Origin: Iphione sp. A-MEVVRFRX5
Taxonomy: Eukaryota
DNA: 64,000 nucleotides
Direction of reading: 5' to 3'
Assembly: GCA_976226885.1 (NCBI GenBank)
Contig: OZ320318.1
Location: forward strand, 66,340,001-66,404,000
Part shown: one piece after another, positions 9,395-34,600 of the stretch
Layout: every line of letters begins with the position of its first letter
Numbering within the stretch: position 1 is the first letter of the stretch
Position numbers and translations under genes: made by a program
The notes under the pieces: generated by a model
The model's input: the letters and a program-made list of their open reading frames with translations, nothing else
The model's database searches: none
What the model was told of the DNA's origin: nothing

Positions 9395-12300
9395 CTAATA
9401 ACCATAAGGCAATGTATCAAAATCAGGCTGTATGACATGCTTTGTATACATGATCTGGTACCTTTTATTCTTCACTCTATTTACAGTTTTCATTTTCTTT
9501 GAATTCCTGGGAATTTTAGATGGATAAGTAGTGGTGATTGTTTCATTTCCTTGATTGACAATGTCTTTCACTGATTCAAAATGAACGTTCTGAGACTGCA
9601 AAGTTTAAGGGGAAACCCCTTACTTTACAGACTTTCACATCCCAATTTGTCTTGTTGGAGTAATATTTTGATCCACCTGACACAAATTCAACAATGAAAT
9701 CATCACCTTCCAGCTCACTGCTGAGATCACCAAGCTAATCTCCAAGAGATGGTTGATATTCACCAGGTTTACATCTATAGATCACAGAGTCAGTGTCATA
9801 ATACAAAACATGACCATCCAGTTCTTCCAAATACTCATACAACTTCAGACTAGCCCAACAAACTGGAAAGAAGTCTTAAGTATATATTTCTTTTTTCCAT
9901 CATGTGGCAAGAAGGAGTCCTGATATTCCCACTGAACGCTGATGATGTCATTACTGATGATGTGAAAATCAATGACTTGTTTGGATGGATCACTCAGAAG
10001 CCCAAAGAAGGAATCACTCTCTGAATTATAGAATTAGGTGTTTTGTCTCATATTCAAATGTGGGCCAAATTTACCCCAAAATGAATTTAAACACAATTTA
10101 GCAAGGGATCCTAAACCTGGATTTTTGCAGATGTCATCATAATCTAAAGAGATGCCCTCTTTCTCTTTGTAATTTCTGATATATTTTTGAGGATCTTCTT
10201 TGCTCTGACACCAAGAAGGCCAGTCACTAGCCTCTTGTTTCAATTTCAAGAGGGTTTTAATATATTCTGCAAAGAGACCACCATTACTATTCCTATAACA
10301 ATTATTTCTGTGCCAATGATAGATCTCAAATGTTTTCAAGATTTTGTATCCTATTCTCATGGGCTTTTGATTTTCAGGGGTGCATGGAGTCCCCACAATG
10401 GCTCTGTCTTCACCAGTACATTCACACTTTTGTTTTAGCTCACTATCTGCACATGTTCTGCAAAGTGGGAATTTCAAGACTGGATGGTAGAGATCATGTG
10501 GAGGCAAGACTTTCACTTTGGCAATACCAAAGTAACTGTCAATATCTTTAAAATCATACCCATCTACTTTATATGGTGTACCAGGAACCTTGAATTTGCT
10601 TCAGGTGACAGTGCATGTTGAATCTTTACTTTTGTTTGTAATGCAATCCATTCTAACTATGCAATGGACAACTTACTAAACTGTTCCCTACAGGCATGTG
10701 TTTGAATACCTGTAATTGGAGAGCTCACAAATTGATTTGACAGCATATACCACTCCCCCAGTTCCACATAAGACAGTGTCCTTTACCAAGTTGCCATCAA
10801 TGATAAAGGTCCAGGAATCATCCTTCAGAAAACTGTTCACTTCTTTGATCTCTCCTGTCACCCTGTGTTTCAGAACAACAACATGCTCCTCTTCGAAAAA
10901 TTAAGTCTTGAATATTTTTGTGCATACACTTGCTATTGTCAAACTATCAAATGTATCAACACCCTGTCTTTTTTATTTCTTGTTGTTTTTATGACTATGT
11001 CCCTGAATTTAATGCATGCCTCCCTGAGGATGGTAACATCAGATTTACAATAATAATGCATTTCTTTCTTAAAATCACATATGGTGCCCTGATTTGCATG
11101 CCAAGCCATGAACTCTTCTGTTTCATTCACCCCCATGGAGTTTACACCATAGAATTTCACTGCAGGATAGGGTCCAACATAATCTTGGTTTTCTCTGGTG
11201 TTGAAGTAATGGGGAAACCAAACCTTTTTCAACTCCTTCAAGCCAAAAGCTTTCGGTAAGCCAGCAAATTTCATAGGTAATTAAGGAAATTAAGGGAATC
11301 AATGATTCTCATGTTAAGAATCCTACCTATATGCATAAACATGATTTTTGATCCATTATACACAATTTTCTGAGGGAAAATAGACCTTTTCATGAGCTGT
11401 TCAAGTAGAAAATATCCATCATAGCCTTTTAGGTTATGTACCAAAACAGTAGTGTCTTTATTCTGTTTATGAAAAAAACCAATTGCAGAAATCCTTAGCA
11501 GTAGAGTCCTCTTGGAAAACAACTCTGCACTTTCTACAAGTAAGTAGTCAAGGTGGGGTCGAAAACTTTTTTTCTTGTACATCCCACTGTGAACATTTTG
11601 GACACCTGTTTCCACAGTTTTCACAGATTTCATTTGTAGGTTTTTTGGCAAGTATGGCATACTTTATGAGCTATCAAAAAATTTGGATGATGAATGAACT
11701 TTCCACAAGACATGTTGCAGGTGATACATTTGTAACAAGAGGTGCACCATTGCTGTTCACCTCTAAATTTACACAACTCTTACCAACATCAGTTTGATAC
11801 TCTTTCTCACACTGATTGATATTGTCTTGTCTACACTCAAAATCAAAGTAGATGTGTCTGAATTTGGTTATATCAGCAGATGGCAATTCTCTTTGAAAAC
11901 AAAGGTGATCTCCTAGCACAAAGGCATCACAGTTTGACCAGTGCCATTCTCCACACTTGTGCTCAGTGTACGGTCTTTTTACCCTGTTGATTACTTCATG
12001 GCATGTCTTACATTTCCACCAAGCTTGACATTCAGATAACTCATGCTTCTCCCTGTTTTTTCCTAAAATCTTTTCTTTCCAGAGTCTATGTTGTTCAAAA
12101 TATTCAGGGCTACGACAAGTCATGTGACACTTGAGACAAGTCAAGGGTGAATCAGATGTTTTACAACCAGGGATCTTGCATACAACACACTGATTACTAC
12201 AGTTATGCCTACCCTTGTCATTATAGGGAATGAGACATGCTTAACAAAAGTAGGATGCTTTGAAAAAACCTGTAACTTTGGTAATGGCATGAAAATGTTC

Positions 12301-13400
12301 TACACTGTCTTCATCATCATTGTTCACCAGGTAAAGATATATTTTAGTTTGTCAGACTAAATGGACAAGGCATCTCTCTTCTCAGAAGGAACATGAATGA
12401 ACTTGTTTCCAAGTCTTGAGGACAGAACTAAAACATCAATGTCAAGTAGCCTTTCAAAAGCTGAAATATCATAAAGACTTGCTGCTCAGTCAGATGAAAT
12501 ATTTGCTTTTTGCCACAACTCCCTTGCTAATTCTTTTTTATTGTTTCTCTTTTTGTCCTTTAATTTACCATAATACCAGAGAGGTACCTTTTTCAAATCT
12601 AAAACTTTCTCAGTGATGGATCCCTCCACTGTCTGGGCAGAGGCTCGCCATTCTTCTGTTGACACAATTTGGGTTTTGGCCCAGGCTACACCAATAGCTC
12701 TTGCAAGACACTCGTTGTCTTCATTCATTCTTTTAACCAAGGATTTCTTCTTTGCTATTGAGTTTCCAGGCCCATCAACAGTAGTGATGTAACAGTGGAC
12801 ACCACCTTTGGGAAGCTCTATTGTCCCAACATCAATATGAAAACCATTAGTCATGACCAACCCCTCATTACTATTGAAGACATTCTCTATTCTTTCCATT
12901 ACTTGGTTTGCATTCATCTGATTTAAGGGATGTAGTGGTACAATAATTGGGTTGGATGATGGATGATGATTCTTCCTAGATCATGACCTGCCAAGTTACT
13001 CCTCATCTCACCAATGACTTGATCAAACATATCATAGAGTACATCATACATATTTATAATCTGAGTTCCATGAAAGGCATTAAATTTTACCTCATGTGTT
13101 GTATCGATAGCTTCATTTTTCATAAAGGTTCTTTGATGTCTCTTTCTTACTGTATAGAAGGGTTTTGGTGTTGATGCTGGTGCCTGATAGGACGATGCTG
13201 GTGGTGCTTCTTCTTCATTAATCTGAAGCTTCCTCTTTTTCAATGGAAGTTGTGGTGATGGTACACCAAAGGCCTCTGCTGAGTGGGTTGGTTGCCGCAT
13301 TGTTTCAGGTGAGCATCTCCTGTTCTTGAAAGGACCTCCTTTCCTTACTCTGGAACACAGTGACCTCTCAGACTCACTTGGGTTTTCCTAAATGAAAAAG
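9395..13400 (-). pseudogene. Protein-primed DNA polymerase B, family B, near full length, fragmented (copy B1)
   Basis: Collinear ORF pieces: LGRIIIHHP; NEDNECLARAI; Cys-rich region; YFDFEC (ExoI); VLVHNLKGYDGYF (ExoII); LPKAFGL..KK.WFPHYFN; LYHPVL..PLC; KLKQEASDWPSWC; NPGLGSLAKLCLNSFWGKFG (motif B); C-terminal TLPYGY*. Confidence 0.92.
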
Positions 13401-13529: not shown

Positions 13530-13695
13530 AGTTGACAGGATGGGCGAGCTCCTCAACTTTCTCTGGAACTGGTGAGTGAAACATCTTGTCTCATTCCTTG
13601 ATCAACTCCAACATGAAGGTTGTCTTTCCAAATGACGTCGCCCCTCTCACCATTATGGTAGACAGTGTGGGGAATGCAAACCTCAGCACTGTCAT
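13530..13695 (-). pseudogene. Polinton packaging ATPase (A32/FtsK-like), Walker A fragment
   Basis: MTVLRFAFPTLSTIMVRGATSFGKTTFMLELIKE*DKMF. Truncated before Walker B. Confidence 0.75.
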
Positions 13696-13786: not shown

Positions 13787-16445
13787 TCATGCTCGGTCAA
13801 CAGCCGCTGCTGCTGCTGACCTCAACATCGACCTGATGCTTTCCAAGATAGTCCCCAGCTTGTTCAAACCTCTGAAGTCCTCACGGTCTGTCAGCTCCGC
13901 AATCAACTCGCCCATCCTGGCTCCCCAATACCTATCGTTTATGGCATACACTGGGTGTTTCGTGTGGTTCAACTCCTCTGTCACCACTCATCCCAGCACT
14001 TCCACTTTCAATTGGGTTATCTCCATCATCACTTCGAATCTGACCACTTCTCTCCATTCCTTGTTCTGTGACACTATGCCTGCATATGCTCTAAATTTGT
14101 TGCTCTGTGACGTCGAACAAATGGCTTGAGCCACCCCTTCCTAATTGTGGAACATTGCCATTCTGTACAGGAAAATGTGTTTGGCCAAAACAAAAGCTCC
14201 TCCTCCCTGCAAGCACTCATATGTGGGGCTGAGCACATGCCAAGGGCAACTCACTATGTGATAATCATGCGGTATCTCACCCCGGGGGCATAGAGTCAAT
14301 GAGAGTGGTCGCATGTGGATCCCGTCAGCTAGTACTTCTCTTTTGGCATAAAAGTAGGTGAATCCTTGTCTCTCTAGTTTGTATGCACACACTCTTCCCA
14401 TAAATGCTCTGAAGCCCCTGTTCTTGCCTGACTGAGCATGCTGAGACTCTAACACCTCCACGTATGTTTGCATTAGGTTCACAACATGCGCCTTCATGAT
14501 CCCTTTACAGCTTAATTTGACTGATGGGGATGTCGTGTCCCTACTCTCTAAAATGTGTTTTACTTGTCAGAGCCATGATCTTATCTCCCCTTGCCTCTTC
14601 ATTCATTAAGCTGAGCATTCTCCTGTTGTACCTGTGGTGTTTCTCGCAGCATTCCCTCATGAACCACTCCAGTCTCTTGTTGTTGTCACATTTACTCAGA
14701 CTATCTGCCTTGTACATCTTTTTTCATGACTCTGTCATCACTTCCTTGATTGATGGTTTGGCCAGTGCAATGTATGTGCTGTCTGTATCTATAGTCACAT
14801 ATTCAAACTGAGACTGTTCCATCACTTGTAATAAAACAAGAGCATGATGGGCTTGGCATATTGGAGTATCGAGAACCCCATGTACACTGGCATGTCTAAA
14901 ACTATTCTCAGTTTTGTCAACTCCACCTCATACAGTCCCTTAATCTCTGTCAGTTTCCAGAACCGAGGTGAATTGACCACCGCCACTGCTTGATTTGCAC
15001 TGGTGAAATACTTCACGCAGTGCTTGTCTTTCCTTTTGCATAATTATGCCACCGTATGTGGAGTTCCCAATCAGTTTCATAGTATCGGCTTTGATAAACA
15101 TGTCTGGGTTATTGTCTCCCTCTCTCCTCGCCTTGTTGATGTCGTCCATGAAAGGTCTAAAACATTCTTGTGGCATAAACTCTATCAACTGATACACCCT
15201 CATGACTGTCATACCATGCTCCATGTACCATTTCAGCCGGGGGCTCAATAAGAGCATCTTTGTTGCCTTCGTTCCTCCTACCAGTAACCTCCTTGGTCTT
15301 TCCAATAGTTTGTGACTCCTTACATGTTCTCTCATATGTTGGTCCATGTGCTCCATCTGGACCAGCATGTTCCCAAACAATGGACACATCTCACTGAGGT
15401 ACTCTTGTGGACTCAGCATTTTCTCTTTCCCTACTGGCCACACATTGGGAACTTCAATGTCCACTTCGACAGCACTGAAGAACATCTCATCTAGTATGTC
15501 CTCCAGTATTTGCTCCTCTGTAACTCTCCCCTTGTGTATCTGACTGATGATCAGGAAGAAGTTGTTTGCAAATTCTCTAAACATCATGTTTGTTTCCAAC
15601 TTAGAAGTGAGCCTGCATTCTTCCATCATCACCATCTTGTAACCCTGTTCTTTGATGTATGACTGTCTCTCTTCCATTCTCTTCTCACACCTTTTCTGCT
15701 CTGTCTTGTTCATCTTCCCCACCAACCATGTGTGGCCATGGAAGTAGCAGCTGTTGAACTCAAATATGGTTCTTGACTCTAGTTTGATCCCATCTACCCT
15801 GAATGGTCCTATTTTCACTTCTCCTTCCTACCTGTTGTGTGCATGGACAATGTCCACACACCTCGTTTCAGCCTCCCACTCCATCCATATTATGCTCATG
15901 GCTGACATTGTTGCTCTCTGTTGAGCAAACCCTGTTTTCGACCTCACAAATGTGCTGTAGCATGCTTCTTTCCTATACAGCATAGGTACAAGGAATTGGC
16001 ATCCAGTCCCAGTACTGTCTTTCATTTGTTTTACGTGTTCCTGATATGCATCACATCCCTTTTGTGACTTTGTGTGAATACAATGGACAGGCTTCCTACT
16101 ATATTCTTTTGGAACGTTTGATATATGTCCTCATTGTTTGGACCAAACATCAGAAACCTGGCCTTGTTTCTCACTGCTGACTGAAATAAAAGTCTCCTCC
16201 CTATGCCTGGAGCTGAGACAGCTCCTTTGAATACATCCATGCCCCTGTCAAAATAAAATTGTAGGAGATGTGTCACACCTTCCACGAATGGACCCACATC
16301 CAGTTTGTTGTAATATGTCAATAGATATCGTAAGGTGCACATGCCTTCACTTGTCCAAGTCCTTTGTAGATCTTTGTATTCTTCATGGATGTTGTTGCAA
16401 TTCTTTAGACTGAAATAGAAACTCTTTGTGGCACGGAAGAATTTA
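13787..16445 (-). pseudogene. Family A pPolB C-terminal two-thirds fused to a NADAR-like domain (copy A2)
   Basis: YYNKLDVGPFVEG; FQKNIVGSLSIVF; nuclease-like GPFRVDG..IFEFNSCYFHGH; ADTMKLIGNSTYG (motif B); LDMPVYMGFSILQYAK; GFTYFYAKREVLADG. One frame from 14497 to 13787 then continues into LSPTYEC..KHIFLYRMAMFH..EWREVVRFEVM..DRYWGA..FRGLNKLGTILESIR, with two premature stops. Confidence 0.9.
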
Positions 16446-18750
16446 TATTTAGATGTTGACCAGACTTTCCCCAGAATGAATTCAGACATGGTTTGGCAAG
16501 GGACCCTAGTCCTGGATTTGTGCAGATCTTTTCAGAATCTAATGACATCCCTTCCTTCTCTTTATAATTTTGGGTATATGTTTACAATCATCTGCAGATT
16601 TACAGCAAGCAGGCCAATCAATAGCCTCCTGTTTCAATTTAAAAAATGTGCTAATGTATTCTGCAAAGACACCACCACTACCTGAGTCTCTGTCATAGCT
16701 GGCAATTCCCAGTGATGAACCTCATAGATTTTCAAGATATTTTATCCTTTCTGTACAGCCAGTTGAATTTCTGCTATACACCATGTCCCCACATTGGTCA
16801 GATCTTCCTCACTACATCAACACTTTTGTTTTGACTCACTACATACACAAGTTTTACAAAGTGGGAATTTCAGTTTTCCTCCAGCATGATAGGGTTGAAC
16901 AGAATGGTAGAGACTATGTGAGGGTGAGACTTTCACCTTGACAAAACCAAAGTAACTGTTGATATCTTGAAAATTTGATGTAATAATGGTTAGATGACCA
17001 ACTGGACACTGACTGCACTTGTTGACAAAAGGATACAAACTGGTGAATTCAACATAATTAACTTTTTCATTACCTTCGATATGATGATACAATTTGATAG
17101 CATTTGTCTTACTAAGAAGAAACTGTCTTGAGCATCAAGCCTGTCATAATGTTTTAATTTTTAGACAAAAATCCTTTAACTCAGGATGTGTGTCAATTTC
17201 TTTGTGGAATTGAAATTCCCATTTACACTTATGTAACAAAGAGATACCAAAGCTTTCTTTTTCTTCACAGTGATGGTATATAATTAATCCAGGGACTTTT
17301 TGGTATAAGGATGTTTCAAATGTTCTCTGTCTTTCACAAAACAGTAAGGGCATCAATGCATTATACAGCCATGATACTCAAACATAGTCTTGGTGGAGGT
17401 GCTGTAACCATCTACTTTATATGATATTCCAGGAATCTTATATTCTTTGCAAGGAGACAATGCATGTTGGATTGTTATATTTCATTGCACACCTATCCAT
17501 TCTTACCATGACATTTTGCTGAATTGTTCCTTACAACCAAGGGTTTGCACACTGGCAATAGGAGAACTTACAAAGTTGGTTTATAACATATATTAGTGCA
17601 TTTCACCAATACACCATCTATTTCAAATGTCCAGACAGTACCTTTTAGGTAACCTTGTACCTGTTTCTCCTCTCCAGTTGCTGAATGTTTAAAGACAACA
17701 GTATGCTCCTCTTGCAAAAATTTCATACCCAAACTAGCAATAAATCAAGCATGGATCTACACCTTGGCCTGTTTGGCATTTGGTGGTTTTCATCCCTAAG
17801 TTCCTGAATTTGACACATGCTTCTCTGAGAATGGTGACATTAGATTCACAGTAATTATGCATCTCTTTCTAAAAATCAAAGAATCCACCTTGTTTTGCAT
17901 GCTATGTTAGGAAATCTTCCCTTTCTTCCACCCCATGAATCTACTCCATAATACTGCACTTCAGGAAATGGTCCGACATAATTTTGATTTTCTCTTGTGT
18001 TGAAGTGGTGAGGAAACAATCCCTTTTTCAATTCAGTTAAACCAAAAGATTTGGGTAATCCAGCTAATTTCATTGGAAGAAAGTTAAGGGAATCAATGAA
18101 TGTCAAGCTCAGCCCCCTTTCTATATGCATGAACATTATTTTGGAACCATTATATACAATGTTCTTTTGGAAAAATAGATCTCTTGATAAGCTGTTCTAG
18201 AAGGAAAAACCCATTTCAGATTATGTGCTAGAACAGTACTGTCTTTATGCTGTTTGTGGACCAACCAATCACAAAATGCTTTTGCAGCAGAGCCCCTCTG
18301 AAAACAACTCTGTACTGTCCACAGGCATTGGGACAAAGTGGAGTTGACAACATTTTTATTGGCATTCATCTACTCTAAAGGACCAAGAGCCACAATGAAT
18401 TCTCTAAAGCTGGATGATGAATGACAATCCTTCTAAGAGTATTGCCTACTGAGTTACTTAAGACCTCTCCAATGACTGTCAAACATGTGATGGAGTACAT
18501 CATACATATCTGCAATCTGTGAGCCATAAAAGTCATTGAATTTTACTTCATATTTTGTATCAATGGCTCAATTCTTCCTGAAAGTTCTTTGAGTCTTCTT
18601 TTCATGGTGTAGGGTGGTTCTGGTGCTACTGGTGGTGGCTGTGGTGCATTGAAGGCTTCAGGTGAGCAGGGAGGTTGTTGTCACATTGGTTCTGGTGAAT
18701 GCCACCTCCTTTTCTTGATAGACCATAAAACATAGTTGGCTTGCCACACC
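16446..18750 (-). pseudogene. Family B pPolB, internally deleted and 3' truncated (copy B2)
   Basis: N-terminus homologous to B1 (PYTMKR..YEVKFNDF); VLAHNLK; FIDSLNFLPMKLAGLPKSFGL; YVEFTSLYPFVNK (motif A). Ends at NPGLGSLAKPCLNSFWGKSG, where it abuts copy A2. Confidence 0.9.
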
Positions 18751-19790: not shown

Positions 19791-20069
19791 CTATACACTC
19801 ATAATAAAATGTATTGCTGATTGGAAGGCGGCAAGCAGTAGTGTACAGTGTGCAACCTTCAGACATGACGTCAGTGACCATCTCTTCAGGGCATACTGCC
19901 TGACCTCCTCTCTCACCAGTAGTACCAACAGATTATGGGCGATCTCTGTGAATGCATTTACCTGCCCCGGTGTTGCCATGTCAAAGAGGGCCTCGACCTG
20001 CTTGCAACTGGGACTGGATAGGATGAGTCAAATAAAACTGGCATTCTCTCTCAACAGTGTGCTTGACAT
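19791..20069 (-). pseudogene. Small Polinton-type ORF downstream of the ATPase
   Basis: MSSTLLRENASFI*LILSSPSCKQVEALFDMATPGQVNAFTEIAHNLL. Resembles the short ..A...Q...I.E...NLL ORF that often follows Polinton ATPases. Recognition is from memory only. Confidence 0.45.
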
Positions 20070-20109
20070 CGTCTGTCTGCTACTACTACTTCTTTACCAA
20101 ACCAGTGGC

Positions 20110-20715
20110 TGCTGCTGCTGCTGCCCATCCAGAAAGATGTGGCCAGTCAGTTTCATGTCCATATCGTTACGTGGGTGCAGATCAAAAACCAGATATCCAT
20201 ATAGTTCCCTGGTTGCATCTGTGTAGGCCACCTTCACTTCTGGCATGCCCATCTGGCTGCTCAGATGTGTGATCTGTTGGACATCTCATGGGTTTCTGAA
20301 CAGGACCAGGTGCTGCGAGTTCAGGGTGATCGACCTGGTACACTTGCCTTGGCAGAACAGGTTCCTAATGAGGTAGATGACTGTGATGCGATTATGGTGT
20401 GAACTGCATGTGAACAGACCCCTCACCTTCTCGCTCTGAATTATGTCATCCATCAGGTCGTATATTATCAACAATATACCATCTGGGTGCTTTGCGTCAT
20501 CCATGTTGGTCCCTTCTCGGAACTCCACTTTGCCCACTAGCTCTTCAAATGCACTCTGACGTAGATTATTCTCCCTGGTATTGGTGCCTGAAGCATTGCT
20601 CGCCCATTCTTTATCAACTGTTTGACAAAGTGTTTCTTCCCTGAAGATGTGGCTCTGCTCACCACATTCATGGACAGCGTGGCAAGCATTTATGCGGGGA
20701 TCTAGATCTCCATAC
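20110..20715 (-). pseudogene. Polinton packaging ATPase (A32/FtsK-like)
   Basis: Frameshifted Walker A SRATSSGKKHFVKQLI; Walker B LIIYDLMDD; SHHNRITVIYLIRNLFCQGKCTRSITLNSQHLVLFRNP*D; AYTDATRELYGYLVFDLHP. Confidence 0.9.
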
Positions 20716-20759
20716 CTTCCCCACCTAATGCAGAATACGGAGCATATGCCATGGTGACT

Positions 20760-23462
20760 CATCCCTTCTAGTTTGTTTCTCCCTCTGAATTCTTCTGGAG
20801 TAGATATAGCCACCATTGCCTCATCCATTCCTACTCCCCAGCATTTGTCCCTGTTTGCCTACATGATGGGTTCTGTATGGTCCAAGGCTGATGTTTACTA
20901 TCTCTCCTAGTGCCATCATCTTTAACCATGTTACCTATGACATCGCCATGTACTGTGCTTCATGCTTCCACTCTTTCTTCTTCACCATGTCAGCATAAGC
21001 CCTGTACTCTGCCCTGTCCACGTTCGCTTTGATTGCATGGGTAATGCCCTCTTCCTCATGGAACTCCGCCAATCAATGTAAGAACATGTTCTGCAGACAT
21101 GAACCCATCTCCCATGACACACTCATACATAGGGCTCAGCACATCCCATGGTCGAGCAATAATGTTGCAGTCACTTGTGCCTTCTGACCATGGCCACAAC
21201 GTTATGTTCTGCAGCGACATGTGGACTCCATCAGCATCTACTCTCCTTTTCACATAGAAGTAGGTGAAACCCTCCTGAGACAGTTCGTACGTGCATACCA
21301 TCCCCTGCCATGCCCTGACTCTGACGTTCCTACCCGCTTTGCTTTGATGTGTCTCTAGCAAACTCTGGTATGTCTGGAGTGGGTCTACCACATGTGCCTT
21401 CGACACGCCTTTGCAACTCATTTTGATCATGGGTGGGTCAGTGGTCCTACAAGTCAAGACATATGTCTTGCTTGCTGGGCTATTATCTTGTTACCCTTAG
21501 CCTCTTCTTTCATTATTCCTGGCATGCAACAATCGAATCTGTGATGGGTGGGACAGCACTCTCTCATGAACCATTCGGGTCACTTGTCATCACTCCAGTT
21601 GCTGAGGATGTCTCTTTCATACATTCGTCTGCCCTCTTCTGTCATGGCACCAATAATTGATGTGCTCACCAGGGTGATGTACGCACTGTTGGTATCCATC
21701 GTGACATATTCGAAGTGGGACCTGTCCATCAATCTGTCAATGCAGTCATAGTAAAAGGAGAGCATGACCAATTTCGCATACTGAAGTATGGAGAATCCCC
21801 CATAGACGGGCATGTCTAGTATTACCCGAGTCTTGGCCATCTCCACCTTATACAGTCCTTTTAGTTTAGTCATTCACCTGAAACATGGCAAATTCACTTC
21901 TGCCATGGCCTTGTTTGGACTTGTGAAATACTTGACGGTATGTTGTTTCTCCTTCTGCATTATAATGCTGCCATATGTGGAATTTCCAATCAACTTCATT
22001 GTGTCCACGATAATGGTCATGTTTGCATCATGGTCTCCCCTTTTCCTTACAAATGAGCTAAAACATGCATGGGGAACTCAATGGACAGATGCACCTTTGT
22101 GACGATGAGTCTGTGTTCAATATATCATTTCAGTAATCGTGCCATGATCAGTGTTTTCTTTGCACTAGTGGTACCGATCAATAACATGCTCGGATTTGTG
22201 GAGAGTCGCTGAGCCCTCACATGTTGTCGCATGTGTTCCCCTATGTCGTCGATGGTCACCGTTGTGTTTCCACACATAGAGCACTTCTCAGAGAAGTACG
22301 ACGTGTGGTCCATGTCACATTCCATTCCAACAGGCCACCTTTTTGGGACTTGCATGTCAATTTCCACAGCTTCAAACAGTGTCCCATCATATATGCCCTC
22401 TATGATCTGTTGTTCTGTCAATCTCCCTTTGTGTATGACACTGAGTGAAGGGGTGAATTGCTCAGTGTGCTCTCTGAGTTCATCGTTTTCATGAAGCATG
22501 TCCGAAAACCGGCACTCTTCCATTATGACCATTGTGAATCCCTGGCTCTCTCTGAACTTCTTCCTCATTTCCATCCTTCTTTCTCGTTTGTTTTGATCTG
22601 TTTCTCTCATCTTGCCTCTAATACATTTGTGTTTGTGGAAGTAACACTCATTGAACTCGAAGACCGTATTTGTTGCATGAGAGATTCCATCTACTCTATA
22701 TGGGCCCACCCACACTTCTCCTTTGTATCTGTTCTGGACGTGAGTGATGGCAGTGGTTCTGGTCTTTGCTTCCGACTCCATCCAGGCTATGCTTGTCATG
22801 GATAGTGGTGCCTTTTCTCATTTGAAACCTGTGTTTGCCCTTCTTCTCACATATGTTCCTGTGGTGTGTTCTTTCCCAATACAACACAGGCACAACAAGT
22901 TTGCATCCAGACCGAGGATTGATTGGCATCCATTCAATGAGTCTCTGATGTAGGTCACAACCTTCTCATATGTTCTCATGAACATGATGGCCAGACCACC
23001 CATGATGTTTTTCCTGAAAGTCTGGTATATGTCCTCATCATTTGATCCAAACGTTGGGAACGTCACACCACTACCCAGAGCAGACTGGAAGAGCAACCTC
23101 CTTGCTACACCTGGTGCAGACACTGCCACCTTGAAGACATTCATCCCTTTATCGAAGTAGTTTTTTGTAGGCGTGTTACCCTTTCTACAAATGGGCCCAC
23201 ATCCAGCTTGTTATGATAGACCAACAAATCTCATAGGGATTGCATACCTTCACACACCCAGATCCTTTGAAAATTCCTCATACTCTTCTGTCGATATGCT
23301 AGTATCCTTCAGTGAAGGGTGGAAGGCCTCGTGATTGGGTAGCTGTGTCTCATTCAATCTCTGGTGCGCCCAGGTATTCATAACAAAAGGTACCCTTCTG
23401 TACTTCCACATCATATGCTTTGAGGAATTTTGCATATGAAACTCCCAGTGTTTCAACATCAA
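20760..23462 (-). pseudogene. Family A pPolB C-terminal two-thirds fused to a NADAR-like domain (copy A3)
   Basis: GVSYAKFLKAY..KGTFCYEY; NIMGGLAIMF; LGLDANLL (motif A); GPYRVDG..VFEFNECYFH; LDMPVYGGFSILQYAKLVMLSFYYD..MDTNSAY; MSCKGVSK; GFTYFYVKRRVDADG, continuing in frame to RPWDVLSPMYEC..GFMSAEH. Then, after frameshifts, LAEFH..EWK and DKCWGVGMDE..FRGRNKL. Confidence 0.9.
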
Positions 23463-23848
23463 CTACAGACTACGTTTAGTAACGTTTATAGTATAATAGG
23501 GTAATACAATCTAACTACTATTACTTCTACTTAATGTAGCTTGTGATTTGTTGTCTAGATCAACATTAGTAGTTATGGTTGAACGATTTCTCGCAGACAA
23601 CTTTGATCTATGTCATTTTCTTTAGTAGCCAGTGTGTTCATACATTTCAGTAGCGGATACATCTTCGTACGATATCTCTTGTGTTTGAATAAAAAAAACG
23701 CTATCCAACTAATGGTGTCTCGCTTACCTATATATCCACATCTATGGTATACGTATGACAACTAAAACGCTAATGCTTAATATTTCATTGTGTTGTTGAA
23801 TGATCTACAGCTTCAGCAATATGTCATAATCTTGCTCATACGATGTAG

Positions 23849-24436
23849 TCATATACAGATATGACTTCTTTTTCCCATTTTCAACACATTCTTACGCATG
23901 TCTTCTTTTATGGGAGACCATTTTATATCATTATTTTCATTGTCAGTGATGCCTGCGTATATTTTATACATACAGAAACTCCCCTCATAGAGACGCGCTA
24001 CTGAAATTCTTATATGCGCTGCGTGCATTGTATGTTCTTCTATGTCCTCTGGTAGTTGAACACACCCTGGGATATGATCTCTCTGACTATTTGCGTCACT
24101 CTCGCAACCTTTACACCATTCTTTAATCCTTGCTACATATTCTGATCTTAACATGAAACCGTGTGTTCTCTCGATGATCTCTTGAACAGTGATAGTCAAC
24201 TCAGATTCAACTGGAAACTCGATGGATTCGTCTTCACCTCGTCTGTTCATTCCCTCGGCTACACAGAAGTCGTGACATATGAAATCACGATTGCTATAGA
24301 CAACCTTATCATTGACACTTGAAACAAGTTTGTATCGTGATATCTGGTATTGTATGATTATCACTTCAGATGGCTTATCGACCTTCCTCACCTTTTTGTT
24401 GGCCAAAAACTCCACGTCCACTGGTTCGATTTTCAT
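23849..24436 (-). CDS. Intact orphan protein (195 aa) with WCKGCE-x4-SQ-x2-H-x-PGC motif; paralog of 45223-46574
   Basis: Uninterrupted ORF. Aligns by eye with the 45 kb ORF over about 150 aa (DFCVAE, ITxxEIxER, WCKGCE..SQ..H.PGCV.LP..I.E...HAA.IRIS..RL). Confidence 0.7.
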   Translation of the reverse strand: MKIEPVDVEFLANKKVRKVDKPSEVIIIQYQISRYKLVSSVNDKVVYSNRDFICHDFCVAEGMNRRGEDESIEFPVESELTITVQEIIERTHGFMLRSEYVARIKEWCKGCESDANSQRDHIPGCVQLPEDIEEHTMHAAHIRISVARLYEGSFCMYKIYAGITDNENNDIKWSPIKEDMRKNVLKMGKRSHICI

Positions 24437-24917
24437 ATATCTTACATTTCTGTCACATTGAGGCCTGCTCGCTTAAAATATGTTTGGTTTGTTTATATCA
24501 TTAGTTAAAGTGACACAAAGTCTTGGTCAGGTGTCAGAAAGGAGGACAAACATCAGGCTTTATCTCTCCTGTGATGCAACACTGTGTGATGAGGGGCCTA
24601 GGGTCTTATTGGGCGAAAGTACTGTATATGCTGCGGTTCGATCTTATGCACATGTAATTAATCATATGATCAGTGACGTCATTTAAGGGATGAGCTGTAT
24701 GCCATCTAGCCATTCTCTGCTTGTTGCTTGGAGTGAGCAGGTCTGTAACTCTCTCCAGTAACCTAACCGTTTTCTTCCATTTTAACAAGCATCATGAAGG
24801 AGAAACGCTACTTTGCGTTGGACTAGGGTAATATTATTACGACATGCTCATGATCTTTTACGTGTCTGTGTCTCAAAACAATAACTTGCTAAATCAAAAT
24901 TGAGTAATATTTCATAC

Positions 24918-26505
24918 CAGGAATGACCATGGAACCTGAAGCTCTGCCCTCTGCGGTATGTACCCACGCCAGGAACCTGGCAGGTCTCACTGCTTGTGTG
25001 CTCGGTTCGAACCCGGAAATGGTTCCTTACAACCCCTTGAAAAGCATAAGATAAAGAAGTACATTGTATATGAAAAATTTATGTCGTACATAGCATGGCC
25101 ATTCTCCCTATCGTGTTTTCATGGAAAGAATAGAAAGTCGTGGAGCTCATTGAAACAAAAACAGACTTATTGAGGTGACGTCAACGAGCGTTAGAATCAT
25201 TTCAGTGCGTCAACTATAGATAAAGCAACAAAACTATTCCATTTACCTGCTAAGCGGCCCCGTTCCTGCACACAACGCCCCCTGTTGGGAATACCCCTGA
25301 TTGTGTCTCCGAGGAACTCTATGTGGCAGATGTAGCCGTGGGGGCAGAGGAGGGCGTCCTCATCCTCACTCAACTGAGACGTGCTGCACCTCTCAACTGT
25401 AAGGAAGATTTTGTCATCTGATTATGGGTCTTAGAAATGTCAATAGGGAGAGGGATATTTGTCTCAATGGAAGACGGAAGTGTTTGTGTGGTTCTTGTGT
25501 ACCACATCGTCCATTCATTATAAGTGTGATATCGTACTATAGTACCATCAACAAGCACAATATTTCAAGGTGAAATCGAATTACTAAATGCCATCTGCCG
25601 GTAAATGTATTTCCGTTTCTATGAACGAAGAGGAATATATACTGCACTCACCTTGTATGTTATCTTCACTATTTGTTGGCGGCAGTAACCAAGCTATTCC
25701 TATTGAAGATATGTGAACCATTTTGAAAACACATTTTAAATTAACTGTTTAAGTGGTTTCCTAGTCGATATAGAAAAAAGGAACAATAACACATAATGTA
25801 TGTATAATTTTGTAGTATTCAAATTAATTCAACTTATTTAGTTTATTTTGTATTCTTACCCCGTAGTATTATGGATGTTCTCATTTGGCATATTGATCAT
25901 TATTTATTTTAACAGTACATTAAACTTTATCAATAGCTTTACATTTGACTTCAATGTTAAAAATGTCCCCTTACCATTTTTCTTCCGCGGAGGTTCTTTT
26001 CGCCAATCAACAACTACAAATGAATTAAAATACTGTACAATATCAGTCTTAAAATCTACAGTGGCGGTGCAGACGAAAAAAGGAAAACGGATAGGTGTGC
26101 TTGTAGATTTAATTTTGAATGCATATCTATCAAGTCATTTAAAAACCCGTATTGTGAATGAGGAGTAATGGATGGCTGTTAATCATCAGAAAGATAACAT
26201 CACGCTTACTCACGAGGGGGCGGTGGCATAGCAGCCATGCAAGTAAATACACAGCCATTGTTACAGCATCGCTGGTCACCATTGGCAGAACAATCCTTAT
26301 CTCCACGGCATGCTGGCACCAAGCAGGCATCAGGTGGAGCCTCAGTGAAGGGCGGTGGACATCGAGCAGAGGAGAAGGTAGCGGGAAGAGACGACGATCC
26401 ACCCCCTCGATTCCCATAATTGCCACTAGGGGCCGGGCCCAGAATGGGGCCGGGCCAATGTCTGTCCGACCCCACACTGTCTGACTGCATTTCATATAGG
26501 AAGTC
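24918..26505 (-). CDS. WFDC1: Spliced WFDC1 (ps20)-like WAP-domain gene, internal exons
   Basis: Exons 26505-26214, 25699-25652, 25396-25247 and candidate 25035-24918, all with AG/GT boundaries and compatible phases (0-1, 1-1, 1-1, 1-2). They join to ..CPPPFTEAPPDACLVPACRGDKDCSANGDQRCCNNGCVFTCMAAMPPPP|RIAWLLPP..IQ|VERCSTSQLSEDEDALLCPHGYICHIEFLGDTIRGIPNRGRCVQER. This closely resembles vertebrate WFDC1 (CPPPP..LPPGAC..CCYNGC..VPPPP, LLCPSGYECHI..GIPNRGQCV). First and last exons were not located. Confidence 0.85.
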
Positions 26506-27380
26506 CTGGAAAATAGAAACAATTGTAATTTCATCTATGTTATCATGTTTATACGTATGGTTTTGAAAGTCTTGCTTCTGCCAACTCGAATTCTAGAAGT
26601 ATGAATGAACTAATCCCCTTGATGGCTGGTAGGTGTACAAAACCAGGGAAATGCATAGGATTTCCAACCGGGTTTCCAAATAATTGCACCACTTAACTGT
26701 CGTTGCTGTGGCAATACCGTATCCTGATACTGTATCATCAAAATAGTGTAAACAAACATTTGCCTCCCAGAGGAGTCAACAAGCCATCCGGAGGTACTGT
26801 TCAAATAGGTCTTTCGCTCTTTCCCCCAAACACTGCTTGTAGTGAAAGGATCCACCATACAAGCCCGTGCAAAGCCCCACAAAAGTCCCAGCGCCATGAG
26901 CCAAACGTCACGCTCAACTAACACCTAACACCTTCGTTACGGTCCTCCCCTGTGCAGTGGCCATTGCACTTGTTTGAGTTCACCTTGTCAACATGGAGCT
27001 TTCAGTGGAGTTTAATGATGTAGTAAGAAAGACGGAAAAGGGTATAACATGCTACAAATAAAACAAGGTTTACCATCATATACATTCGTCAGAGTCATAT
27101 ACGCCGTTTGTGCCTTATGTCAGCAGTAGCCACGTAAAATGACCCAGAGTGATAGTGTTGGACAAATTCGAGCAGCTTGATGCAGATACAACCAACATAC
27201 CTGCATGGACAGTTATTTTCTCGCTGTTATTGATATTTTCACGCATTCCACCTGGAACCACCCACTCTCTGCAAAAAACAACTATTAGCAGCACACAAAT
27301 CTGTCATTTATGTACAGCTTTGCCACAAAATCTGTAGACATAGAGGAAGTGAATTCAGTAATCATAACAACATGATCATA

Positions 27381-27452
27381 ACGTAGATAGCTTAGTGGGA
27401 GAGTATTACAGCGAAAATCTAAAGGTCCTCAGTTCGATCCTGATTCTAGGTA
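27381..27452 (+). pseudogene. Decayed tRNA-Phe(GAA) pseudogene or tRNA-derived SINE head
   Basis: ATAGCTTAGTGGGAGAGTATTACAGCGAAAATCTAAAGGTCCTCAGTTCGATCCTG follows eukaryotic tRNA-Phe (ATAGCTCAGTTGGGAGAGCGTTAGACTGAAGATCTAAAGGTCCCTGGTTCGATCCCG). Acceptor and anticodon stems are broken. Confidence 0.7.
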
Positions 27453-27779
27453 AAATTGTAAAACCAGGAGTGATGGCTGACAGAAGTGGACAATGTCTTG
27501 GTCGAAATTAATAACAATGACCATGCCTCCAATGTGATGAATCATTTAAGTTGGATACATGTATGAGTTACTGAACAGTCAATTTAAATGTGTCAACATT
27601 AGGGACTTCTCACCACAACTCTTTGAAAATAAGGGTGGTTTGTTCCTGATAAAACATGGTATTGTTCTCAATTCAAAGTATGGGACTGTCTAAAGGAATT
27701 TCTGCAGCAGGTACCTGCTAATGAGAGGAAATCTAAGAAGGAGCCATCAAAGAAATGTAAAAGATGTGTCTTTTCAACA

Positions 27780-28765
27780 ACAGCACCTCTCACCCCATGT
27801 GTTCACAAAATATCCCTTTAAGGCTTATATTGGGACTGTACTCAACTATAGCGAGTCTGCTAAAAGATCCAAGTGTCAGTGTCAACTTTACTATGAAAAA
27901 TGAAATAAATCCTGGTGAAAATGACCCCGTAGATGGAAGTAACCCAGGGCTGACTAATTGCACTATGTATACAAAAGAGAGCAAAGTAATGACATTAGAA
28001 GGGCCAATCCATGCAGATATTTAAGTGAATGGCAAAGTCATTACATAATGAACAGGGTAGAGATTGCATTTAAATTTGGCCCTCTGCCAATGAATTTGTA
28101 CTCATTACTGCCAATCCTGCTGCTGACTACAAGTTGTAAATCATCAAGGCTGTACTGAAAGTGAATATGGTTGAACTCAGCTCAGAAATCCTTCTGTCCC
28201 ATGCTCAAGCCTTCAAGACATCACCTACCACTTATTTCTGTAAAAGGTCTGACATAAAAACTTTTGGCATTGCCAGGAGGAGATTCAGTTGTGGCCTTGA
28301 GGATATTTATCAGGGTCATATACCAAACAGTTTGGTTGTTGGCTTGGTTGCTTCTGAGGCTTATAATAGTAGTTATAAGTGCAATCCCTTTGAATTCAAA
28401 ACATTTGACCTCAGTTCCATTGCTTTCTATGTTAATGGTCACTCTACCCCAACAGCACTGATAACACCAAAATATAGTGATGGAGACTACATGTCTAGTT
28501 ATATGTCACTACTTGGTGAAAACTACACTTACGATGATAGTATTCTAATTGATAGAGATGACTATGTTAAAGGCTACTGTCTATACAAATTTGACACTTG
28601 CAAAGACTATTGCAAACAGTTAGAATGTTAGAAACATAAGGAAAGGCCATACTAGAATCCATATTTCTTTTTCAAAGAGTTACCAGAAGCAGTGACTATT
28701 GTTTTGTTTGCCAAGTTTCCTGGTCAAGTTGAAATTAATGAAGCACATAGTGTGCAAATCATGAT
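27780..28765 (+). pseudogene. Polinton major capsid protein (double jelly-roll, PY/hexon-like), 5' truncated and frameshifted
   Basis: YPFKAYIGTVLNYSESAKRS; DGSNPGL..LEGPIHAD; LLSHAQAF..KRSDIKTF; YQGHIPNSLVVGLV..NPFEF..LSSIAFYVNG; IDRDDYVKGYCLYKFD; LPEAVTIVLFAKFPGQVEIN. Confidence 0.88.
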
Positions 28766-29224: not shown

Positions 29225-31503
29225 ATCCTCAATGGTGTGTTACGTAAAGAAACACTCAGGTAAGCACAGGTCTACCCATTACTGCTGGCATGCATCTATT
29301 TCGTAGCCTGAACAGAGAGGGAGTTTTTTTATCTGAGGTCCCTCAGAAGCATTGCCTAGGGTATCACTGGGATTATGTTCAGACAACAGCGCAGCTAGCA
29401 ATTGCATAGTGACTTTAATGAGAGGAGTTTTTTTACCTTGGAGATGATCATGGATAATGTGACAGTTAACCTTCACCACCTTTAGCAATCTCTAGAATAA
29501 TTTTAATGTCCATTTAATTGTTTTACACTGGAAGTCATAATACTGGAGGAGCTGATCACTGAGATCGACTCCACCCATGTATTTAACATACTCCTGTACT
29601 GATTTGGGGCAATCCACAAGATGCTTAGAGAATTTACCAGTTTTGGAGTATCTACCATTTCTACTGATCAGTGATACTTCTGTACCATGTATGGTTGATA
29701 GTACATTTACAATATTGTTATCCCTTCAAATAGTCAGCCTTGCAAGTTTTTTCCTTTGGAAGATAGAAGACCCACATGTTGCACCCTGTCCAGAAGGTTT
29801 CTTTTTTTTGGCAGCCCTTTCCTATTTTTTCTTAGGGTCCCACAAGCATATGTTCCCATTCTGTACAGCTTTTCCAATAATGTCCAACCTGTGAAGAAAT
29901 TGTCCATGAAAAGGCAATAGCCCTTCTTGAGGAGTCCAGCAAGCCTCATCAGTTTGAGAACAACATATTCTGCCAATGGTGTACCATTCCTTTCTTGATG
30001 ACCGGTGTAAGGCAGAAGGTATAGGATAAATCCTGTTTGGAAAAAAAGTGAGAAAATAATTGGCATCTGCTCTGCATATGTTCTATGGTTACATATGTGG
30101 AAGCCAGCAAATGTCAATTATCCCTAACAAAAAAAAAAGAATCTTACCAGTGATTGCCTCCTACAGCGCCCAGATCTTCACGCCCCATTTCTGTGGCTTC
30201 TTGGGCATATACTGCCTACAACGAACTCGACCCTTGAAGGGAAACATGCTCTCATCCACTGAAAGATGTTTCCCTGGGGAATAGACAGCCCTGCAAGTCT
30301 TGTTGATGTGAGCAATTAGTTTGTTGATTTTCCATAGGGGGTTGAATCGTCTCGTAATACCATTTTCAACCGAGGTCTGATCATAGAAGGTCAGATGTCT
30401 GAAATAAAAATCAATTTCATTGAATAATTTGAAAATATGCAGACAAATTGAAAATTTCTCCAAAAAAACAAATACATATTTTCATTTAGAGGGTGTAGTA
30501 TCTCTATGTTGAACTCACCTCAAGATGCTCAGGAACCATTTCCCGGGCATCAGCTGCCCAAATATTGGTGTTGCCAGATACATGATTGTTTCCCAGTAAG
30601 ACTTGATGGTTGGTTTACATATCAGTCCCATTATAATGGACAAGCCCAGGAATTTCTTAAGTTCACTTGGAGTGACAGGAATCCAGCTTTTTTAATGTTG
30701 TCTCTTCACAGAGACATTGGTGCTTTCATTCAGGTCAGCATGATGGTTTGTATGTGCATGAATGAAATCGATCATCAATATGGTGAAAAATCGATAAAAT
30801 ATATCGATTAGTGTGCTTGCCTTATTCAATCCACTCTCTGGGTTGACTGCCTGATCACTGCTGTCAAAATTAACCTTTGGGGTAGGGTCACCTTCACCAG
30901 ACTTCTCCATGTACCACCCATCCAATTTCCTCTGATCTCTCATTCTCCTCAGCAGTTCATTCATTGACATGTTGTCATCTTCTCCATCGTCTTCATTGTC
31001 TTGATCATTGATTCCAATTGCATCGGATACCTCATCTTCAGCATCATCACTGGAGTGTATAGAGTCATTTGTGCCAGATTCCACAACAATATCCCCATCT
31101 ATAAGCCTATTAACCTCCTGAGGGAGGTTTTGGGCCAGAAATTCCTCGTCAGATGAGAAATCTGACATTTCCATTGTTTACATCAAGAACAACACATCAT
31201 GACGTAAACAACCACATCAGATTGTAAACACAACAAAATACCACCCCCAAAACATTTTTGTAATTTTTCTCGAGAGAAATATCCATTTCTTCCTATTTAT
31301 TCCATAGTAAGTGATACAATAGTCACTTTCCAAGTATTTTTTTACATGCATTTGATGTGTATTTGATGTGTAATCCATGTGTAACATTGTTTACATGCAT
31401 GTATCCTTAAGGATACATGCTGTCCTGGGCAGTGTATCCTTAAGGATACACACCAGAATACATGGTGTATCCTTAAGGATACATGCCATCCTCATTGGGT
31501 TAA
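29225..31503 (-). mobile_element. piggyBac transposon remnant with a two-intron transposase pseudogene
   Basis: Acidic N-terminus (31174); ELKKFLGLSIIMG..YWET..TPIFG; catalytic triad VDESM, MDNFFT, GGVDLSDQ; YMPKKPQKWGVKIW; C-terminal LCLPECF. GT-AG introns at about 30518-30405 and 30148-30033. 5' terminus CCC next to TTAA at 31500-31503. The 3' terminal repeat was not found. Confidence 0.9.
31397..31483. repeat. Three perfect palindromes TGTATCCTTAAGGATACA in the piggyBac subterminal region
   Basis: 31397-31420 (24 bp), 31432-31451 (20 bp) and 31466-31483 (18 bp), each centred on TTAA. Confidence 0.95.
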
Positions 31504-31606: not shown

Positions 31607-34600
31607 TCAGTAACCATAGGGTAATGTGTTTAAATTTGCTTGAATTGCTCGTTTAGTATATACAATTCTATACTTTTTCTTCTCTTGGTAATTGTAGAGA
31701 ATCTGTTTGTACTTATCTCGACATATTTTAGAGGGATTCGCCACTGTGATAGAATGGTCTATTGTTTTAGAAGTGACAAGTTCTTTCATAACATCAAAAT
31801 TAATTTTCAAGGAATTGGAATGATGCAGAGTGAATCCCCTAACTTTGCACACAGTTTTGCCATCATTAGTTCTGTAACTATAATTTTTAGGACCAGCTGA
31901 AACAAAAGTTGTTATGTAGCTTTCATCAAGTTCATCTGTCAGTTCACCAAGGTAATCACCAGTCTCTGGCTCAGGAAAACCAGGTCTGGAAACAAAGATT
32001 ACTGAGTCTGTGTCATAGTAAAGAGCACGCTGATCTAGTTGCTGAAGAACATTATATAGTTTTAACTGTGCCCATCATGTAGTAAATGTAGAACAAATAT
32101 ATTTGTTTTATCATCAGGACCAAACTTTTGTTTCATGGAGGAGTATTGCAACAAAGTAACATCTTTGTTGATTGTGGACCTGTGGATCTGTCAGCAAGGA
32201 AAAGAATATATCAGGTTGGCTGCTGTTAATAAATTTAGTTTGCGTCATATCATGCCTCTGGCCAAACTTTCCCCTGAAAGAGTTGAGGCACAATTTGGCT
32301 AATGATCTTAACCCTGGATTCTTTTGAATTTTTTTGGTAGTCTAAAGCAATACCCTCATGTTCATAGTAGTCACTAATGTATTTTTGATGATCAGTCTCA
32401 GACTGACACCAAGATGGCCAGCCTGATGCCTCTTGCTTCAATTTTAGGAAAGAATTGATGTATACTGAAAACAACCCACCTATTTTACTGACAGAGTCAT
32501 AAGTGCTCATTTCATCCCAGTGGTACACCTCATAAATTGTTATAATGGTGTATCCCATTTCAACTGCCTTGTTTATCTCAGGGGTGCACCAAGTACCAAT
32601 CATAGATCGATCTGTATCTGAACAAGTACATTTGCCTTGATATTCACATTCTGCACATGAAGAACAAAGTGCAAACTTCAGTTTCCCATTCAATCTTAAA
32701 GGCAAAACTGGGTGATATATGCCATGGGGTGGCAAGATTTTGACTTTGGCTATGCCAAAGTAATTGGAAACATCCTTAAAATCTTTTGTTATGACAATGG
32801 GGTGCCCTACAGGATAAGATGAATACTTATTTACATATGGATACAAAGATGTAAAATCAACATATTTGATTTTCTCAGCCTCTGTTGTCCGGTGCCATAA
32901 TTGTGCTGCATTAGTTCTGCCCCCAAAGAAGGACTCTCTTGGATCTAAATGAGACTGAATATCTAACCAACTGACAAACTGTCTCATTTCTGCATTATGT
33001 TTTAACATATCAGTGTATTGACATTCCCAGATGGAAACAACTTTGTATCCATTGTCTCACAAGAATCACTCCATTTTAAGAGTGAGGGTATGTAATTCCC
33101 CAGACGTTTGGCCTGTAAAAGGATGTCTTCCACTGAAACACAGCTTACAACCATGCCAAAGACAGCCATGAAAGCAATACACTGTAGGCTTTTTAGATGC
33201 ATTCCCAGGTATGAAACCATCAACTTTGTACCTGGAATTCGGTATGTGGTATTCACCATCATTAAGAGCATGTTGAATGTGTACACCTTGGGTATGTTCG
33301 ATCCATTTCAACCAACTAATTGAAGCCTAGCTATACTGATCGGACTTATACCCATGAAAGGGTACTTGAGCCAGAGCAGAGTGTGTGAATGTCTTTTCTA
33401 GAATTTCATAATCAGTATTAGTGACCAATACTAACTCATTCTCGATATCAAACAACCGAGTATTTTTTTTACAGAATGCATTGGTCTCCATCTCTTCACC
33501 TGTTACCTTGTTTTTCAACTTTACTATATACTGTTCTTCAAAGTACTTAGTTTTGAAAATATCTATGCAAACACTTGCTATTGTTATGTGGTTGAAAGGA
33601 TCAATAGTTCCTGTCATGGTACCATCACTCTCTTATGTTGTTACATGGAGCATGAGGTTTCTGAATGTCAGGCAAGCCTGTCTTAAAATGGTGACATCTG
33701 AAATGCAGTACTCATAATTTCCTTTAGAAAGTCAAACACCAAACCACACTGAGCATCATGCCACTCAATGACTTCTTTCCTAGCCCCTGATGACATTTGG
33801 TCCATTCCATAGGTTTCTTTAGGTGGAAAAGGACCAACATAGTGCTGATGTGCTTTCTTATTGAAAAAGTGAGGGAACCATCCCTTTTTGAGTTGAATCA
33901 GACCAAAAGCCTGAGGAAGTGAGGCAAGGGGCATGGGGAGAAAATTGAAAGAATCTATAATTCGCATGTCTAGTTTTTTTTTATGTACATATACATAATT
34001 TTGGACCCACTGTAAATGATATTACTTGGTTCCAAGCCATGACCTGTCATGTAATTTAAGAGAAAATATCCGTCATACCCCTTCAGGTTATGGGCTATAC
34101 AAGTATACCCTTTGTGATGTGTACTGATCACATATTTTCCAAAATCATGTGCAGTGGTGTCCCCTGAGAATATTTTTTGTCATTCTCCACAACTCTGACA
34201 GTTGTCAGACAGAGGAAGATTTTCACATAGATTGCACACCTTTTGGATCACCACAAAATTTGGTGTGTGTTGAGGTCTACCACAAGAAGAATCTTTACAA
34301 CTCATACATGTTCTGCAACAAAAACATTGAGAGTCTTGTGTTCTACATTCTACACAATGTTTAGCAGGATTCAATGTATAACCTGTCTGAAATTCAAAAT
34401 TACTATCTTGATGACTTTCAAAGTCAAAATATAGATGATGAAATTCGGTAGTGTCTTTCCATGGATTAGCACGATGATAACATAAATGACCGTATTTCAC
34501 CATGGTCTCACAAGAATGGCAGTACCGCTCATCACACTTGTGTGTCTTTGGTTCAAATTTAGATGAATAACCTTTTTACAACTGACACATCTCAACCACT

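Follow-up and report, generated by a model that had tools for sequence, protein, structure and literature searches.

A NADAR-fold domain at the end of the DNA polymerase of a Polinton/Maverick family in Iphione sp.

Decayed polymerase-NADAR copies in the window

The DNA analysed here, referred to as the window, is a stretch of 64,000 nucleotides from Iphione sp. (contig OZ320318.1, positions 66,340,001 to 66,404,000). It carries a decayed element, A3, in which a DNA polymerase continues into a NADAR-like tail. The original prediction had read this fusion from an open reading frame and a set of short motifs, and every one of these was located; they lie on the minus strand and are spread over three consecutive frames. 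The first of these frames is open from stop to stop over 21056-21490, carries the polymerase-NADAR junction without interruption, and contains MSCKGVSK (21421-21398), KRRVDADG (21250-21227) and RPW..SAEH (21154-21086). LAEFHEEEGITHAI (21072-21031) and EWK (20973-20965) are read from the second frame of the tail, and DKCWGVGMDEAMVA (20849-20808) and EFRGRNKL (20792-20769) from the third.

The polymerase portion of A3 (21190..23493, minus strand) was aligned to codons 688-1462 of the intact copy L028. Its long segments share 63-69% identity with an intact copy, and it contains stops and frame changes. A short in-frame linker (21164..21189, minus strand) leads from the polymerase end to the broken NADAR-fold tail (20765..21163, minus strand), whose reading frame shifts twice, near 21090 and 20900, and is interrupted by three in-frame stops, at 21075, 20937 and 20861. 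Directly downstream on the same strand, as in intact elements, lies a packaging-ATPase remnant (20097..20719, 59-71% identity to the intact ATPase), and after it a remnant of a conserved gene of unassigned function (19860..20057, 64% identity over 66 residues). No integrase is preserved next to A3.

When compared singly with the Pfam NADAR model, the pieces of the A3 tail remained below the cut-off of 35.1, the last piece giving a weak match and the best score being 15.5 bits (E 0.022). Similarly, Pfam detected no NADAR in the 43 raw ORFs of the window, because each piece is too short. When a profile of related tails was used instead, all three A3 pieces were matched in the correct order, and the reversed translations gave no match. 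Among the 39 other genome places listed, a listing that is a lower bound, the best match to A3 was 71% and no close sibling was present. A3 is the relic of an extinct subfamily, in which the polymerase, the tail, the ATPase and the remnant of one further gene have been retained.

A second copy, A2 (about 16440-13830), shows the same layout as A3. It consists of a decayed polymerase of a separate subfamily (14300..16439), a NADAR tail in a single frame with two stops (13829..14251) and the start of an ATPase remnant (13555..13680, 50% identity over 42 residues), all on the minus strand. With X placed at the two stops, this tail scored 44.6 bits against PF08719 and passed the cut-off of 35.1. 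The DNA of the two copies is 62.8% identical over 1946 columns; their residues are 56% identical in the palm and 40-44% in NADAR. Given this DNA identity and the saturation of synonymous sites, A2 and A3 come from separate subfamilies, in agreement with the independent divergence claimed originally; the same saturation rules out a local tandem duplication as the origin of the pair. SAEH and WGVG of A3 correspond to LAKH and WGAR in A2. Retaining these two motifs does not turn the tail of A3 into a canonical NADAR; even intact copies do not have the equivalents of K50 and E125.

A probable third and more distant remnant was found at 50099..50917 on the minus strand, with the polymerase end at 50917-50463 and the first NADAR-like half at 50269-50099. 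It gave 29-44% identity in tblastn and 11.5 bits (iE 6e-5) with our own tail profile, and had no Pfam match. The N-terminal half of a NADAR-type polymerase (36005-37717, 66% identity over 479 residues), a palm fragment of the same type (5136-5723), and integrase and capsid-like remnants (4888-5029, 8700-8957 and 27050-28760) were also observed. Three further decayed copies, at 9400-12980, 16445-18641 and 32250-35363, carry another type of Polinton polymerase, matched by Pfam DNA_pol_B_2; no NADAR signal was found near these, and the first ends in TLPYGY. The window is a graveyard of Polintons, in which A2 and A3 lie among polymerase fragments and integrase and capsid-like remnants.

Intact copies in the same genome

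The genome (1.18 Gb) was searched with the unbroken frame of A3 as query; 150 of 1109 candidates were scored and 150 matches listed. By hand count, 104 of the 150 listed matches have open frames of at least 1500 residues. We sampled 40 of the long frames, picked to span the score groups. A complete tail was present at the end in 39 of these, and the remaining one stops inside the tail. The 40 frames fall into 14 subfamilies with 69-84% residue identity, and within the nine subfamilies represented more than once the DNA identity is 98.0-99.98%.

The motifs of the exonuclease (Exo I/II) and of the polymerase (Pol A/B/C) were found in 39-40 of the 40 sampled frames, and all 40 contain an insert motif which we take to be VSR-like, using a search pattern of our own. 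In intact copies a single open frame encodes zinc fingers, the exonuclease, the VSR-like insert, the palm, the thumb and NADAR. Downstream are an ATPase-like gene, two genes of unassigned function and an integrase with a chromodomain; penton-, capsid- and protease-like genes lie downstream as well, these labels coming from an Atlas lead or from motifs. Several accessory genes of intact elements (L092:4997-9999 and L023:560-1453) have secreted or membrane-like, cysteine-rich starts and no Pfam matches.

Assignment to the Polinton/Maverick class

Both ends were located in four elements of one subfamily, all of which are 21.3 kb long, carry identical inverted AGTAGT termini at both ends and are flanked by 6-bp target-site duplications. 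AGTAGT termini and a 6-bp target duplication are the norm for Polintons. An 11.1 kb copy (L021:3326 to L022:4418) is internally shortened; its 355-bp terminal repeats are perfect, but its capsid-like gene is truncated and no target-site duplication flanks it. For two other subfamilies, no terminal repeats were found within the stretches examined.

The integrase of intact elements scored 36.1 bits against rve, above the cut-off, and has a chromodomain in addition. The C-terminal part of the polymerase matched the models of phi29 polymerase and of bidnavirus/adintovirus PolB, and Pfam DNA_pol_B_2 gave no match to the NADAR-type polymerase. The Walker A motif of the packaging ATPase was recognised by eye and its Pox_A32 match (E 0.0015) is under the cut-off. 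The capsid-like gene has no Pfam match; it reached an ESM Atlas score of 0.98 to clusters with 15-30% PF21738, at a sub-threshold recognition value. The protease-like gene, also free of Pfam matches, may be an adenain-like cysteine protease, as judged by eye from its H, D, Q and C motifs.

The fused elements are a recently mobile Polinton/Maverick family, and this is the class, unnamed in the original prediction, to which A3 and A2 belong. The proposal that the fusion was ancestral and maintained in active elements was borne out by the intact, near-identical and dispersed copies with target duplications, and by dozens of distant relatives. We found no locus in viral contigs, and metagenomes yielded one short locus at 27%; no free-virus form was thus seen, which is weak evidence against one.

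Predicted fold of the tail

Four of four intact tails tested exceeded the PF08719 cut-off of 35.1, with 36-55 bits. When the last 264 residues of a natural copy were modelled with AlphaFold2, the pLDDT was 93.6 and the pTM 0.68; the top two PDB matches of the model were 8BAU, the NADAR of Phytophthora nicotianae, and 2B3W, the YbiA of E. coli. In VIA-align, model residues 112/114-264 were superposed on 8BAU with a Z of 15.9 (rmsd 2.4, 151 aligned) and residues 112-264 on 2B3W with a Z of 13.5, while residues 1-84 matched positions 483-575 of phi29 polymerase (Z 5.3). The predicted model shows the YbiA fold, with five core helices and two small sheets. Since its two parts match NADAR and phi29 polymerase respectively, the tail is predicted to form a NADAR-fold domain of its own, lying about 30 residues beyond the thumb. 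The placement of this domain on the polymerase is not fixed by the model, given the pTM of 0.68. When a local tail was searched against PDB sequences, no match was obtained at E up to 1, and a canonical relative was used as a bridge from the local tails to solved NADAR structures.

Purifying selection on the tail

Substitution in the tail was determined for 91 pairs of subfamilies. In the NADAR tail, the median pS was 0.72 (saturated), the median pN 0.21 and the median pN/pS 0.30, with a maximum of 0.41; a corrected ratio, computable in 37 of the 91 pairs, was 0.15. The palm gave a pN/pS of 0.14 and a corrected value of 0.064 (11 pairs). The pN is 0.21 in the tail against 0.11 in the palm, so the tail changes at about double the rate. 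These values are counting estimates and not codon models, and since synonymous sites are saturated, each pN/pS is an upper bound on dN/dS.

For the NADAR codons of A2 and A3, where a dN/dS below 1 had been expected, pN/pS was 0.38-0.44 over 122-124 codons with three reference copies (bootstrap 0.31-0.55), again at saturated synonymous sites. Across the 14 subfamilies 45 of 147 positions are invariant in the tail and one of 54 in the linker. The tail is under purifying selection.

Replacement of catalytic residues

In the solved enzyme from Phytophthora nicotianae, E43, K50 and E125 are catalytic, while K75, G78, R79, W89, R93, D130 and W133 surround the ligand (PMC11543638). E43 binds the ribose, K50 the phosphate, and E125 is the charged catalytic residue, for which active hydrolases have E, D or H. 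Changing catalytic residues abolishes activity in the characterised NADARs covered by the accessible text of PMC11543638 and PMC12945103; in Streptomyces SCO5665, replacement of the glutamate at the E125 site with either aspartate or glutamine is sufficient (PMC12945103). Histidine at this position works in phage NADARs (PMC11125620; PMC11825919).

We mapped these residues onto 12 local subfamilies by sequence alignment, without residue-level structural superposition. The equivalents of E43, W89, D130 and W133 are kept in all 12 and those of K50, G78, R79 and E125 in none, whereas all eight are kept in 24 of 24 cellular and bacterial control NADARs. The E125 position, in the last strand, is tyrosine in 12/12 local subfamilies, and the K50 position is methionine in 11 and valine in one. 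A profile-profile alignment put the same columns together (probability 98). The E43 equivalent is also present in A3, in its SAEH.

Among 54 fused tails from outside this genome, E43 is kept in 19 and lost in 35, K50 is kept in 25, and the E125 position is E, D or H in four; the full triad is complete in three. The positions best kept across these relatives are W89 (52/54) and a closing G.N.LG motif, and the ligand residues vary. The tail overall is not basic.

That K50 and R79 are lost speaks against ADP-ribose itself being bound in the known way, and the ligand may differ or there may be none. The invariance of E43, together with the histidine tolerated at E125 in phages, makes a remodelled active site possible. 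Two of the three catalytic residues are gone in this family, and it is likely, as far as the alignment can tell, that the tail is a non-catalytic binding module.

Distribution and ancestry of the fusion

A HMMER search over 1.84 billion protein representatives returned 925 matches at E up to 0.001, of which 150 were listed. Sixty-nine of the 150, picked for long alignments or long tails, were scanned for NADAR; it was detected at E up to 0.001 in 59 of them, and 44 exceeded the Pfam cut-off. The search for other carriers thus yielded dozens of distant polymerases with a fused NADAR. With our own tail profile, which was built partly from these same sequences, 89 of the 149 listed relatives with a polymerase match have a NADAR-like tail (72 at 50 bits or more). 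In another 10 the tail is different, and 50 extend no more than 40 residues beyond the thumb, which implies that the tail is dispensable in close relatives, although some of these are cut fragments. Word-index protein searches found only one outside relative, and one relative of P0009, itself a triad-complete relative like P0008. The sequences P0058, P0063, P0075, P0080, P0104 and P0141 have tails of 50-130 residues with weak or no NADAR score, which may be later stages of erosion.

A quick and weakly resolved polymerase tree of 75 rows required nine changes of the fusion label compared with 17.8 when labels were shuffled, at least three of them forced by strong branches. In a NADAR tree, which took tails of at least 125 residues and 105 bits, a branch with an SH-aLRT of 98 separates 66 fused tails from 30 cellular, bacterial and LINE NADARs. 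Polymerase and tail distances in 29 rows gave a Mantel rho of 0.38, a value reached by one of 2000 permutations, and the nearest neighbours by polymerase and by tail agree in 20 of 29. One old capture followed by repeated losses fits these sequence comparisons best. There may have been several captures, since the NADAR tree included no phage, giant-virus or RNA-virus outgroups. A recent capture from a LINE or cellular NADAR of the same genome was rejected, as those fall outside the fused-tail group.

The genome does contain a second large NADAR family (L068-L076 and L090 of G000, for example L071:298-1959), and 149 of the 150 listed PF08719 matches belong to it, at 93-109 bits. In nine LINE-type matches examined, NADAR is C-terminal on LINE ORF1-like proteins, most of which are then followed by another ORF; in one copy followed further downstream this is succeeded by an endonuclease-reverse transcriptase. 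The triad is intact in five of six LINE NADARs checked. Such NADARs have been described in the Tx1 LINEs of oyster (PMC12477816, accessible text). There is in addition one canonical cellular NADAR (L067:1360-2346, 176 bits), whose best named relatives come from annelids, molluscs, echinoderms, hemichordates and sponges; they point to a marine invertebrate as the most likely source of the genome. The Scabin-like profile PF22596 had no match in the genome, and its control was likewise silent, so that this absence carries no weight for or against a host writer enzyme.

Comparison with known systems

The polymerase resembles, by its motifs and not by a tree with the sequences of Jeong et al., the Polinton pPolB2-VSR described from molluscs and a marine nematode (10.1101/2023.08.22.554363). 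Both have the protein-primed polymerase motifs, the VSR-like insert and an integrase-encoding Polinton; a second, unrelated and tail-less pPolB type lies in the window as well. They differ in the C-terminal NADAR; the terms NADAR, YbiA and ADP-rib have no occurrence in the main text of that work. Other protein-primed polymerases with extra domains are TP-vOTU-Exo-Pol and pPolB-helicase (PMC11161782, PMC12721341), where the additions, as far as the accessible text goes, serve as priming, protease or helicase domains and none is related to ADP-ribose.

The tail shares with YbiA-family NADARs (8BAU, 2B3W) the fold (Z 15.9 and 13.5), the PF08719 domain and E43, W89, D130 and W133; unlike these, it is fused to a polymerase and has K50, G78, R79 and E125 replaced. 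According to the accessible portions of two papers, NADAR occurs in viruses of several kinds, namely phages, giant viruses and RNA viruses (PMC9503650), and also in retrotransposons of the Gypsy and Tx1 types (PMC12477816). The Gypsy Pol of Ectocarpus and the Tx1 ORF1 of oyster (PMC12477816), together with RNA-virus polyproteins and giant viruses (PMC9503650), are parallels for a mobile element with NADAR fused to a core replication protein; in these systems the domain goes with RNA intermediates or stand-alone genes. The phage protein AdfN (T4 gp30.3, anti-DarTG1; PMC11825919) is a virus-encoded NADAR and a model for the ancestral function; in the published sections it is stand-alone, catalytically proven and acts in a bacterial host with a known writer enzyme, while the tail here is fused and eukaryotic.

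Polintons are not mentioned in the accessible parts of PMC12477816 and PMC9503650, nor NADAR in the main texts of 10.1101/2023.08.22.554363, PMC12721341 and 10.64898/2026.10.13.758929. The literature searched contains no Polinton-NADAR fusion; figures, bioRxiv supplements, Repbase and subscription journals may hold one. The polymerase-NADAR fusion is genuine, old and conserved; it gives a known class of element a new architecture and adds a domain to those described for Polinton polymerases. The accessible text of PMC11125620 treats it as an open matter what NADAR proteins and the ADP-ribosylation of DNA bases do in animals, and the triad-complete, triad-broken and tail-less versions provide a comparative series for asking whether animals tag incoming DNA with ADP-ribose and what role a NADAR pseudo-enzyme plays.

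Possible functions of the tail

The tail is probably an anciently captured eraser that has turned into a pseudo-enzyme. A fuller reading, to which we would give about an even chance, is that A3 is a broken Polinton/Maverick relic whose in-frame NADAR was kept by selection, likely as a binding module that no longer catalyses and stems from an eraser that was once active. An ancestor of this polymerase group would once have captured an active NADAR, which may have cleared ADP-ribosylated guanines or other bases from the template at the point of replication, by analogy with AdfN in trans. Some descendants would have dropped the domain and a few would have kept the full active site, and in most lineages, including this family, the catalytic acid would have been lost and half of the pocket kept. 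This half-pocket might now bind DNA or a ribose-type adduct beside the thumb, without cutting.

It appears unlikely that the tail is still an active eraser which, with a remodelled site or another substrate, strips ADP-ribose added by the host at the fork as a counter-defence in cis. The four retained residues in 12/12 local subfamilies, the whole triad in three of 54 outside relatives and the triad-bearing LINE NADARs (5/6) of the same genome would be in keeping with such an activity, as would the proven counter-defence by phage AdfN (PMC11825919) and the guanine-modifying CARP-1 homologues noted, in the available text of PMC12945103, from bivalves, cnidarians, sponges and other bilaterians. 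Set against these are the replacement of the essential acid by tyrosine and of the essential lysine by methionine or valine in 12/12, the loss of E43 in 35 of 54 outside relatives and the inactivity of SCO5665 after conservative changes to its glutamate, from the same source. We consider equally improbable a purely structural tail that packs on the thumb or binds the ATPase or terminal protein, aiding stability or processivity without a small ligand. Such a role would fit the conservation of W89 and G.N.LG outside, the variable ligand residues and the non-basic tail. Against it stand the 50 of 149 relatives, some being cut fragments, that end at the thumb without the tail, and the local invariance of E43 and D130, which lie at the surface of the pocket. 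That the NADAR is a neutral passenger, or arose by a chance junction as the DNA decayed, is hardly credible: the copies in the window are indeed broken and the pN of the tail exceeds that of the palm (0.21 vs 0.11), but the tail is open in 39 of 40 copies, pN/pS does not exceed 0.41 in 91/91 pairs, and it has diverged together with the polymerase. The ratios of the subfamily pairs and of A2/A3 refute this explanation.

A broader scenario, which we regard as doubtful, is that marine invertebrates ADP-ribosylate the bases of Polintons and that one Polinton clade answered with an eraser or a decoy on its polymerase. Such an arms race could, just as tentatively, be seen as the eukaryotic counterpart of DarTG1-AdfN at the replication fork, paralleled by the LINE NADARs.

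Further features of the window

Two related ORFs with 46% identity are located at 23849-24472 and 45223-46005; by eye both resemble a small gene that intact elements carry towards their far end (L093:1823-2164). We also observed a reverse-transcriptase ORF of 627 aa (60259-62142), a piggyBac-type transposase fragment (29734-30117), a WAP-domain ORF (26206-26592) and a CA-rich tandem array (47127-48241).
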